A stretch of DNA of 4,367 nt, taken from IMG/VR virus record IMGVR_UViG_2663763286_000026, one strand, 5' to 3'. The position numbers and the translations under genes were made by a program. Below are positions 1,553-4,367 of this stretch, one piece after another. The notes under the pieces are model-generated. The model searched no databases. It worked only from the letters and a program-made list of their open reading frames with translations, and was not told the DNA's origin. Position 1 is the stretch's first letter. Every line of letters begins with the position of its first letter. The stretch is from a virus. Its lineage: Duplodnaviria; Heunggongvirae; Uroviricota; Caudoviricetes.

Positions 1553-1741
1553 TCACGAGGACTGAAGTTTCTCGCAATTAAAATTTATCAGTTTTACTTT
1601 CTGCTCTCTGGAAACGCCTGCTTCTTTTTTACCTGAGAGCATTTTTTCGCATTCTGATTTCGTTAGTTTAGATTTTGAATATCTTGTCCAGTTAGTAGGA
1701 GTGCCACCTTCCTTTTCAATAGTGGCGGTAATTTTATACAT
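1553..1741 (-). CDS. ydaC: Small Rac-prophage protein, YdaC-like; 62 aa from the SD-supported ATG (longer 86-aa form possible)
   Basis: ORF ending at stop revcomp 1553-1555. ATG at revcomp 1739-1741 is preceded by AACGGAGGTGTTC (strong SD GGAGGTG, 5-nt spacer). This ATG overlaps the last codons of ralR (ATGTATAA), suggesting translational coupling. The upstream ATG at 1813 has no SD. Identity as ydaC is from memory of Rac gene order and sequence; start codon uncertain. Confidence 0.6.
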   Translation of the reverse strand: MYKITATIEKEGGTPTNWTRYSKSKLTKSECEKMLSGKKEAGVSREQKVKLINFNCEKLQSS

Positions 1742-1984: not shown

Positions 1985-2794
1985 TTATTCCTCTGAATTA
2001 TCGATTACACTGTATTCCCCGGTTAATACAGAGGAATCTGCAGGATCGATTGTCAGTGGTTCCTTTTCATCCATTGATACTGCACGCTGGATCTCAATTG
2101 ATACGGGCAGATATTTGAACAGGCGACGAATAGCCGTTTTCTTTGCCATTTCTTCCCAGTGAGTTACCCACGGCCCGTTATTACCAGCTTTACTCAGGCT
2201 GCGCACCAGCTCAATCTGTTTGCGCGTCATAACTTCAAACTGAGTACCTCCGTCTTTCAGTCTTGCGACAGCATAGACGTGGGTAACCGGGGCATCTTCG
2301 TTTTCTCCCGGGCGGTGTATTAACTTTTCATCAAGGCCAAATTCGAAGCTAAACTCGTCACCTTCACGGACAACACGGGCTGACAGGCTGGCGATTTGAC
2401 CAGAACGGCGAGCCAGATCAATCATGCCGCGATAGCCAATGATTAGCTGAACGTTCTTTTTACCGCTCTTTTCGTTTTTATTACCAAAAGGCAGTAAATA
2501 TGCATGACCGAGGGCGCTACCTGGCTCAAGTCCGAGCTGTGAACACTGTACGATCGCACTGACAAAACTCATAGTGTCACAGTTTCCTAACGCCGGAACT
2601 TTACGAATTTCTGTGGTGGCGATACGGATCATACGTTCAGCCGTCATATGGCGTGGAAGAGCTGCTGCCAGTTGCTCTTTCATTGATGGCTGGTTAATAA
2701 AACTAATCACGTCGCTATTTTTAACTGCTGCTGGTGCACGGTTTCCCTGAGTTTTTTGCAGATCGGCTTTTGCGATTGGTGGTTGCTTAGTCAT
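1985..2794 (-). CDS. recT: RecT single-strand annealing protein (recombinase), 269 aa
   Basis: [32 protein letters not shown]...VIDNSEE, recognised from memory as RecT. ATG at revcomp 2792-2794 is preceded by GCTAAGGAATATGCAA (SD AAGGA, about 7-nt spacer). The start overlaps the recE stop by 8 nt (ATGACTAA). The 288-aa form in the ORF track is an upstream in-frame extension without SD. Confidence 0.92.
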
Positions 2795-4240
2795 TTGCAT
2801 ATTCCTTAGCCCAGCGGGGCAGTGATAATGTCTTAATAGCTGGCCATTCATCGGTATTCAGGCAGTCAGACAGGGTTCGCAGATTGCGGTGATATTCCTG
2901 TTGACCTGCCAGTTTTGCTTCTTCGCCCATCATGAAAATTTCAACCGGATAACGTCCGCATTCAATAGTTGTGCTGGCAACCAGAAAAACGAAAGTTGGC
3001 TGCACTCCAAACTGTGCTTCATAACCGTCACTGTAGAATGCATCCTGAACGTGATAGCGGTAGTCGTAATAAGCGGTTTTGAATCGTTGAATATCCGCCG
3101 TAGTTTTCACGTCCATGATCCAGTGAAATTCAGGGATAATTTTGTCCGGACGGCACCGACACAAAATTCCTGTTTCAGGATCTTCCCAGTAAATTGATGA
3201 TTCAGCGTGTCCGGCGCTTTCAACAAGCCATTGCCCCAGCGGCAAAGCCATAACGCTTTGATACATGAGTTCAATTTTCCGGCCTTCTTCCGCAGTGATA
3301 ACTGTTTTTCCTGTGCTTGCGCATTCCATCAGAAACGCTTTCTCTTCTTCTTTTCCGGCGTTTGTACGGCGGTTAAATTCAGGTGCTACGATAAAGCGGT
3401 TACTGAATTCTTCCGGTTCAAGTACCCGGCAGTGGAAAGCGGTTCCTAAATCGAGCGTTTTTGTCTTTGTGGTGTCAACGGGGGCATTTTTACGCCACAA
3501 ATATAGTGCCGGAGTATCAGCAATGTCATCGAGCTGAGACTTACTGACACCGGGACCCGCGTGGTAATTCTCATTCGAAATTCCGTAATAAATACCTGGC
3601 TCTATGTCTTCTACGATTACGGGATCTGCGACTTCGCCAGTTTCATCACTGCAATCGCGATGCGGATCGCTGCCAGCATTCTCATTGTGCGGATGTTCAG
3701 CGCCTTCCATTTCCTCCGGATCATTTTCCTTAGCTTCAACCTGACTCTCTTCATCGAATGTTTCCTGGTATGTTGCGTCGCCCATCACCGCACCACAGTC
3801 AGGGCAGTTATCCCCGCCAGTCTGGCCGCAGGCATTGCAGGCTATTTCCGGTTCCTGTTGCACTACTGGCTCAGGTTGATTCATATCCGGGCTGGTTTTT
3901 TCCGTTTCTGGCTGGTTCTGGTACACACAATCGCGAGTCTGGATCCCCTTTACCCATTTCGGATCGTTCGGGTCGCTAATTCCGTCAACAAATTCACCAC
4001 GTGATGCAGCAAGCAATTTATCGGCATCGACAGGATCTTTTGATGGAATGTTTTTCCGGGCTTCATGGAGTTCTGCCCGCAGTTCCTGATATTTCGCATC
4101 AATAGAATTTACCTGTGACTGAGCATCCAGCGGCTGCGTGTCCTGATGATGTTCAGTTGCGTCCGGTTCCATTGTTTCAGCCTCTCCCTGTTCAACTGCC
4201 GTTGTTCCAGATGGTTGCGGTTTTTCTTCATCATCCTGTT
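2787..4240 (-). CDS. recE: recE (exodeoxyribonuclease VIII) 3' portion, about 484 codons, 5'-truncated by an IS insertion; gene fragment, possibly pseudogene
   Basis: Translation from ...[26 protein letters not shown]... to ...[13 protein letters not shown] matches RecE central and C-terminal regions from memory (full-length RecE is 866 aa). The 500-codon ORF in the track begins at an ATG (revcomp 4287-4289) that lies inside IS-derived sequence and has no SD, so the native 5' end is absent. Stop at revcomp 2787-2789. Confidence 0.8.
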
Positions 4241-4255
4241 TGAGGTAGCCTGAGT

Positions 4256-4284
4256 TTAACGGACACTCCTTCCTGAAATAGAAT
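4256..4284 (+). promoter_or_regulatory. Candidate inward-reading transposase promoter in the IS left end (-35 TTAACG 4256-4261, 17-nt spacer, -10 TAGAAT 4279-4284)
   Basis: Hexamers read directly from the sequence; position upstream of the orfA SD and ATG is consistent with IS3-family organisation. Not experimentally supported. Confidence 0.25.
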
Positions 4285-4304
4285 GGCATCAGAAGGAGCT
4301 AATA

Positions 4305-4367
4305 ATGAGCAGAAAAACCCAACGTTACTCTAAAGAGTTCAAAGCCGAAGCTGTCAGAACGGTTCTT
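4305..4367 (+). CDS. IS3-family transposase OrfA (helix-turn-helix N-terminus), first 21 codons only; truncated by the window edge
   Basis: ATG at 4305-4307 preceded by GAAGGAG with a 6-nt spacer. Translation MSRKTQRYSKEFKAEAVRTVL is open to the end of the window. It is absent from the ORF track only because it runs off the window. Confidence 0.65.
   Translation, partial: MSRKTQRYSKEFKAEAVRTVL

Follow-up and report, generated by a model that had tools for sequence, protein, structure and literature searches.

A Rac-type recE gene split by IS600: probably a silent remnant with latent coding capacity for RecE nuclease and RecT

Introduction

Can a recE gene that has lost its 5' part to an insertion sequence still give rise to a working, shortened RecE when its 3' part remains next to an intact recT? 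This question was raised by a window of 4,367 nt, the whole stretch of DNA analysed here. Starting at the integrase end, it covers the left arm of a Rac-type cryptic prophage. A first reading of the sequence alone had proposed that the remaining recE fragment is possibly expressible as an N-terminally truncated protein. It relied on two statements on the known system. The first, that the N-terminus of RecE is dispensable for RecET recombination, agrees with reviews: C-terminal fragments E564, E588 and E606 are active exonucleases, the nuclease domain (564-866) can genetically replace full-length RecE, and the full-length protein is superior in linear-linear recombination only (PMC11611040, PMC11257833, PMC11610958). 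In linear-linear recombination the short forms are reported to be poorer. The second statement, that recE of K-12 is silent unless activated by sbcA mutations, is given in the same way by reviews, according to which these mutations trigger its expression (PMC10956419, PMC9504249). Here we followed up whether the fragment has retained a complete nuclease, a plausible translation start and a source of transcription, and how often such alleles occur.

Results

The coordinates of all features are collected in Table 1. From position 1 up to the boundary at 4240/4241, where the identity to Rac stops, the window was 100% identical to many E. coli genomes with an intact recE of 866 codons. The gene order was intR-xisR-DUF1187 gene-ralR/RalA-recT-recE; the DUF1187 gene is presumably the one called ydaC in K-12. 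One draft assembly, GCA_000617785.1, carried the exact IS600/recE junction on contig JHMZ01000053.1, identical at all 4,367 positions. Beyond the intR side this contig continued with a PF01171 (ATP_bind_3) gene, a DEAD/DbpA helicase gene and a CorA-family gene, which match the ttcA, dbpA and zntB that RefSeq annotates at this locus, so that the order of the Rac left arm adjoining ttcA was found here as well.

Table 1. Features of the window, with the basis of each assignment
Feature	Position	Strand	Basis
intR	1-1236	minus	Pfam and RefSeq annotation of identical DNA
xisR	1238-1453	minus	Pfam and RefSeq annotation of identical DNA
DUF1187 gene	1553-1741	minus	Pfam and RefSeq annotation of identical DNA
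ralR	1734-1928	minus	Pfam and RefSeq annotation of identical DNA
recT, intact, 269 aa	1985-2794	minus	PF03837, DNA identity, own AAGGA Shine-Dalgarno (SD) motif
recE 3' fragment (RecE residues 383-866)	2787-4240	minus	484/484 identity, 3H4R, PF12684, invariant catalytic columns
Complete PD-(D/E)XK nuclease domain, RecE 606-866	about 3572-2790	minus	inside recE fragment
Sigma-70-like site ATGACA-18-TATATT	3500-3529	minus	10/12 matches, score 10.7; consensus match only
Candidate internal start, ORF Met40 = RecE M406, 461-aa product	4170-4172	minus	sequence, SD energy and gene callers
SD-like GGGAGAGG	4181-4188	minus	8-nt spacer to ATG 4172
16 IS600-derived codons opening the ORF	4242-4289	minus	frame reaches ATG 4289-4287, without SD
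IS600 left end (IS3 family)	4241-4367	plus	identical to annotated IS600; window ends inside element
Inward promoter-like site at IS600 end	4256-4284	plus	promoter scans; sole site at this end
IS600 orfA start ATG	4305	plus	sequence

The minus-strand open reading frame at 2787-4289 encoded 500 amino acids, 16 of them from the insertion sequence and the remainder RecE 383-866. Its residues 17-500 were identical to those of an intact 866-aa RecE allele in all 484 positions, in agreement with the sequence-only reading, which had counted about 484 C-terminal codons including the nuclease region. The crystallised nuclease domain (PDB 3H4R, residues 606-866) matched ORF residues 239-500 with E=8.5e-181, with differences at two native positions, and Pfam family PF12684 matched residues 249-484 with E=1.3e-28. 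The catalytic residues P747-D748 and D759-V760-K761 were kept (D382, D393 and K395 in ORF numbering), and the columns of D748, D759 and K761 showed no variation in an alignment of 18 homologues. The N-terminal Exonuc_VIII domain PF06630 of the full-length architecture had no Pfam match in the ORF. Since RecE 383-866 alone is left and this domain is absent from the matches, we regard the ORF as a gene fragment and not as a complete recE. The fragment had no signs of decay, an intactness that is uninformative if the insertion is recent.

The adjoining recT was, as had also been read from the letters, intact and overlapping the recE stop codon. The product of this full-length ORF matched PF03837 (E=1.2e-55), next to the exonuclease gene as expected of a RecT, and the DNA of the region was 100% identical to genomes in which a recT of 269 aa is annotated. 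The start codon of recT (2794-2792) and the TAA of recE (2789-2787) lie within an overlap of 8 nt, and the SD motif of recT pairs with the anti-SD sequence at −6.0 kcal/mol.

On the other side of the junction, the inverted repeat begins with TGAGGTAGCC, and all bases of the window from 4241 onwards were identical to the left end of a 1264-bp element that is annotated as IS600 in two bovine E. coli genomes. This identity included the terminal inverted repeat as well as the beginning of orfA. As orfA starts on the plus strand, the transposase gene is directed away from recE. The promoter scans found only the inward promoter-like site at this end, which bears out what had been claimed for it.

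The earlier reading had pointed to two possible translation starts, namely the first ATG of the frame, described as IS-derived and lacking an SD, and the internal ATG at codon 40, preceded by an SD at a spacing of about 8 nt. To rank them, pairing with the 3' end of 16S rRNA was scored for the nine in-frame ATG, GTG and TTG codons upstream of the nuclease domain. Both descriptions were exact. The IS-derived ATG gave +1.3 kcal/mol, i.e. no pairing. The internal codon, RecE M406, is preceded by AACAGGGAGAGGCTGAAACA, which contains GGGAGAGG at 4188-4181; its pairing energy of −8.2 kcal/mol was the best of the nine and within the top 2.4% of ORF positions. The SD-ATG pair is thus real but statistically unremarkable, because nine starts were tested and one SD this strong would be found among them by chance in about 1 of 5 cases. 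Gene callers in public assemblies also begin a 461-aa product at the M406 codon, and on these two grounds M406 is the most plausible translation start.

This start was not made by the insertion. The DNA is 100% identical in intact alleles, so that the SD-ATG pair predates the insertion and forms part of ordinary recE coding sequence. In an alignment of homologues, residue 406 was valine in most other RecE alleles, and we see no sign that selection shaped the M406 start. Gene calls at the same codon in Salmonella and in another E. coli product had suggested a conserved internal start; this idea was dropped in view of the prevailing valine and of the Salmonella gene, where an in-frame stop lies upstream and is followed by a GTG start at codon 406 that lacks a good SD. 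A look-up of the other E. coli product returned no record.

Transcription was addressed by two scans. A consensus scan of the minus strand from the ATG to the end of the window and over the complete IS600 found no sigma-70-like site with at least 9/12 matches, a kind of scan that is blind to weak or non-sigma-70 promoters. A position-weight scan was run on a composite of the window with a full IS600, allowing spacers of 15-19 nt and extended −10 elements. Its best upstream candidate on the minus strand, CTGACA-19-TAGAGT (4357-4327), had 9/12 matches and scored 7.9; shuffled sequences of the same length (about 1.3 kb) reached a mean best score of 9.7 (sd 1.7), above the observed value. A hybrid promoter across the IS/recE junction was considered as well and rejected, no candidate with a −10 element between 4241 and 4173 scoring above 4.7. 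Within the window itself, the minus strand had its best sigma-70 match at 3500-3529. As this site is located within the sequence coding for the nuclease, a transcript from it could serve recT but could not yield an intact RecE. A search of the IS600 minus strand found no strong intrinsic terminator, and two weak candidates compared with 1.5 expected; read-through from beyond the element could therefore occur.

Of the proposal that an N-truncated RecE is possibly expressible, the coding side stood, with nuclease domain, recT and start codon all kept; the side of transcription did not gain support, as no leftward promoter in the junction or in a full IS600 exceeded chance. On this evidence, transcription of the fragment is somewhat unlikely. 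A reporter study of IS3-family elements calls for some caution. In that study, two of five ends lacking a predicted outward promoter still drove expression, and ten of ten tested ends gained promoters by single point mutations; outward promoters were estimated for at least 26% of the elements in the family (PMC12095673). Following these findings, weak expression or a recent activation would be possible.

The allele was very rare. Its exact IS600/recE junction occurred in 0 of 5,426 complete RefSeq E. coli genomes and in none of the GTDB collection with one genome per species, and a look-up of the 500-aa product in a public collection gave no record. The 461-aa product starting at M406, by comparison, was present in 26 blocks of the public collection. 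Other contigs that were read with this product carried an IS1 after RecE codon 352, at a distance of 162 nt upstream of M406. Its insAB genes read in the same direction as recE, and the junction was found in 2-4 of the 5,426 complete genomes. In two bovine strains (2 of 5,426 genomes) an independent IS600 had inserted in the same orientation 44 bp closer to M406. This was a simple insertion of 1264 bp with a 3-bp target-site duplication, AAC, as verified in one of the strains. Beyond the element, both strains had the 5' half of recE and racC-kilR in one contiguous piece. The NCBI pipeline (PGAP) labels the equivalent IS600-split fragments of these two strains as pseudogenes.

When RecE 383-866 was used as a protein query, many more N-terminally shortened products came up. 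One of 332 aa, starting at M535, had 643 member sequences and was located behind an IS end, which we take to be IS186-like. In one deletion allele, a cI-like repressor gene was closely followed by a 7-aa leader fused to RecE 411-866, and an internal deletion allele joined RecE 1-137 to 407-866. Breaks in recE that leave the nuclease domain and recT in place have thus arisen repeatedly, each allele being rare and lineage-restricted. We also considered whether three IS insertions within about 135 nt mark a selected hot spot. This was put aside, as the search with the 461-aa product is biased towards this interval and the alleles are very rare.

Discussion

The fragment is probably a silent, recently made pseudogene remnant that has retained latent coding capacity, in the ordinary course of decay of a cryptic prophage. 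A copy of IS600 most likely transposed into Rac recE and split the gene between codons 382 and 383, in the orientation in which the transposase gene reads away from the 3' piece. The frame of this downstream piece by accident runs on for another 16 codons within the IS end. The piece encodes RecE 383-866 with its complete toroidal nuclease domain, followed by the translationally overlapping, intact recT, and translation could begin at the pre-existing M406 with its good Shine-Dalgarno sequence. The predicted 461-aa product very probably is an active 5'-3' exonuclease able to work with RecT, judging from the activity reported in reviews for the C-terminal RecE constructs, all of which it contains. 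The limiting step would be transcription: a leftward promoter was undetected in the left end or body of IS600, and the early promoter of the prophage, if still present beyond the element, would be separated from the fragment by some 1.2-1.26 kb of untranslated antisense IS RNA. Rho-dependent polarity is expected on such RNA. It is the combination of this expected polarity across IS600 with the missing leftward promoter that makes a silent remnant the most likely state. At best, the fragment could be expressed conditionally.

Such conditional expression by read-through is the main competitor of the silent remnant, and we consider it rather unlikely. Upon derepression of Rac, an early leftward transcript would cross IS600 in antisense direction, and M406 and then recT would be translated. 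The product, to which we attach the same limited likelihood, would be an active short RecE together with RecT, able to recombine linear with circular DNA and poor in recombining two linear molecules. Several observations are in line with this reading: M406 has the best SD of the frame, recT overlaps the recE stop and is preceded by an SD of its own, RecE fragments from the C-terminal side are active, and the minus strand of IS600 is devoid of convincing intrinsic terminators. In addition, the bovine strains show that recE can be split by an IS600 with its 5' half and racC-kilR still contiguous on the far side. For the present allele, however, the window and JHMZ01000053.1 both end inside IS600, short of that far side. 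Furthermore, about 1.2 kb of untranslated RNA past a premature stop should, on general grounds, trigger Rho-dependent termination.

Expression of RecT without a functional RecE, from the promoter-like site at 3529-3500, would be compatible with the other explanations but appears improbable. The site is the best minus-strand sigma-70 match in the window, and recT brings its own SD. Its score of 10.7, however, differs by no more than about one sd from the best match to be expected in a shuffled sequence of 1.3 kb. Intact Rac alleles share this site, among them alleles of the kind that stay silent in K-12 unless an sbcA mutation activates them.

We give least credit to a constitutive leftward promoter, complete or hybrid, that would be provided by IS600 and would transcribe recE(406-866)-recT as in a natural sbcA-like activation: IS3-family ends often carry or readily evolve outward promoters (PMC12095673), a second, independent IS600 lies only 44 bp away in the same orientation and a weak candidate (CTGACA-19-TAGAGT) exists, but this candidate, with its spacer of 19 nt, falls short of the mean best score of shuffled sequence, the consensus scan is empty for the minus strand of the whole element, and the end that abuts recE is the left one, with the inward native promoter, whereas the outward-facing −35 of the junction promoter is described at the right end (PMC12095673). 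That the lineage would thereby have gained a RecA-independent recombination pathway is just as hard to credit, and the rarity of both IS600 alleles (0 and 2 of 5,426 genomes) gives no sign of spread under selection. The wider proposal, in which IS600 acts as a natural sbcA-like mutation and a weak outward or read-through transcript together with M406 yields constitutive or inducible RecE(406-866) and RecT, is likewise highly improbable. A related reading would have M406 serve in intact recE too, as the start of a short isoform that consists of the nuclease part alone.

The window resembles the recE-recT region of K-12 Rac in its genes, their order, the stop/start overlap and the neighbours intR, xisR, ralR/RalA and ttcA; it is unlike it in that recE is split by IS600 and codons 383-866 alone are joined to recT. 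From the sbcA-activated K-12 operon it differs in the activating promoter, which was not found in the scans of the window and IS600. The engineered forms E564, E588 and E602/E606 as well as structure 3H4R are all contained in the natural fragment, together with the catalytic residues. The natural fragment has some 180-220 additional residues of acidic linker (from 383 or 406 to 587) and is devoid of the engineered promoter of ET recombineering constructs. Our literature search, which covered mainly reviews, found no test of exactly 406-866 or 383-866.

Deletions and transposon insertions of the sbcA8 type, studied in the Clark laboratory in the 1980s, are said to have led to expressed C-terminal RecE fusions with demonstrated activity; in these alleles, a promoter and a translated leader were reportedly fused upstream of C-terminal recE. 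The window resembles them in the loss of the N-terminal part of recE and in a foreign leader peptide that continues in frame into the C-terminal part. Here, however, the leader stems from the IS end and comes with neither SD nor promoter. The deletion allele with RecE 411-866 and the 7-aa leader is the closer natural analogue of sbcA8-type alleles. There is also a likeness to activating insertions of IS3-family elements, since the window has an element of this family directly upstream of a potentially functional ORF. In contrast to the ends with outward or hybrid promoters, the abutting end is the left one with its inward transposase promoter, and no outward signature was found.

In conclusion, Rac recET, its activation by sbcA mutations and the activity of C-terminal RecE fragments are known already, and the present allele is a new but unremarkable member of this group. 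As the evidence stands, Rac-type recE has repeatedly been broken by IS elements or deletions that spared the nuclease domain and recT, which is mildly interesting for prophage domestication and not new biology. Only a demonstration of expression would lend the allele more than low significance. Were the fragment expressed, a lineage of wild E. coli would possess an active phage-type recombinase of the RecET kind that is independent of RecA, its recombination with incoming linear DNA and phage genomes could rise, and the allele would be a natural counterpart to the laboratory sbcA alleles and recombineering constructs.

Results and discussion

A natural recE deletion allele, found at two loci (L015 and L016), resembled the laboratory sbcA8-type fusions. 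Its short leader started with GTG, and a gene for a cI-like HTH repressor lay 243 nt upstream on the same strand, separated from the RecE fusion by AT-rich operator-like repeats (GTACTTTA / AAAGTAC). As an expressible short RecE, this allele is a better candidate than the window's own IS600-truncated allele.

Gene calls that start at codon 406, the candidate internal start in the window's recE fragment, were considered as proof of a genuine start and rejected. In the interrupted Salmonella recE (L017) the gene caller resumed at the GTG equivalent to this codon and no good SD was found before that GTG; calls at codon 406 are therefore no evidence of a genuine start.

Coordinates of the features in the window and in further recE loci
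Feature	Location	Strand	Details
RalA antitoxin sRNA	window 1557-1735	+	Rfam RF02694, 225 bits, full length
Sigma-70-like site ATGACA-18-TATATT	window 3500-3529	-	10/12 consensus matches
CxxC-x8-CxxC motif	window about 3794-3844	-	RecE 515-531
Independent IS600 in recE	L001 10196-11459; also L002		window-equivalent position 4197
IS1 in recE, after RecE codon 352	L004-L008, L010, L011		IS1 end 162 nt upstream of M406 codon
IS-type terminal repeat ...CCCTTAAGTTAGCGCTTATG	L012 1-143		precedes M535-start RecE product
Natural recE deletion allele	L015 2339-4392; L016 1238-3291		RecE 411-866 fused to 7-aa leader
Salmonella recE homologue with in-frame stop	L017 2280-2540		

Within the window, the top sigma-70-like match on the minus strand fell in the stretch of recE that encodes the nuclease. 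A predicted transcript from this site would start at about codon 631 of RecE, and recT is the only gene that it could serve. The linker bearing the CxxC-x8-CxxC motif was still present in the window's RecE fragment; in the alignment of alleles the motif was kept in E. coli but missing from Salmonella and Raoultella, and it may form a small zinc ribbon. RalA is an already known Rac element, antisense to the DUF1187 gene and extending to the 3' end of ralR.

Insertions into recE were recurrent. The second IS600, carried by two bovine E. coli strains, lay 44 bp from the window's insertion site in the same orientation and was accompanied by a 3-bp duplication (AAC); in strain 88_1577 the IS600 in recE was additionally nested or duplicated. 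A CCTGTT motif occurred close to both IS600 target sites, which may point to a local preference in targeting.

At all seven loci with IS1 in recE, insAB ran in the same direction as the 3' fragment of recE. Two of them (L004 and L005) also carried another IS1 and genes for phage morphogenesis further upstream, which suggests that this prophage was rearranged by IS1.

The 332-aa RecE product from M535 formed a protein cluster (P0088) of 643 member sequences. The terminal repeat preceding it in L012 is presumably of IS186 type; if it truly is, this would be a fourth IS family splitting recE.
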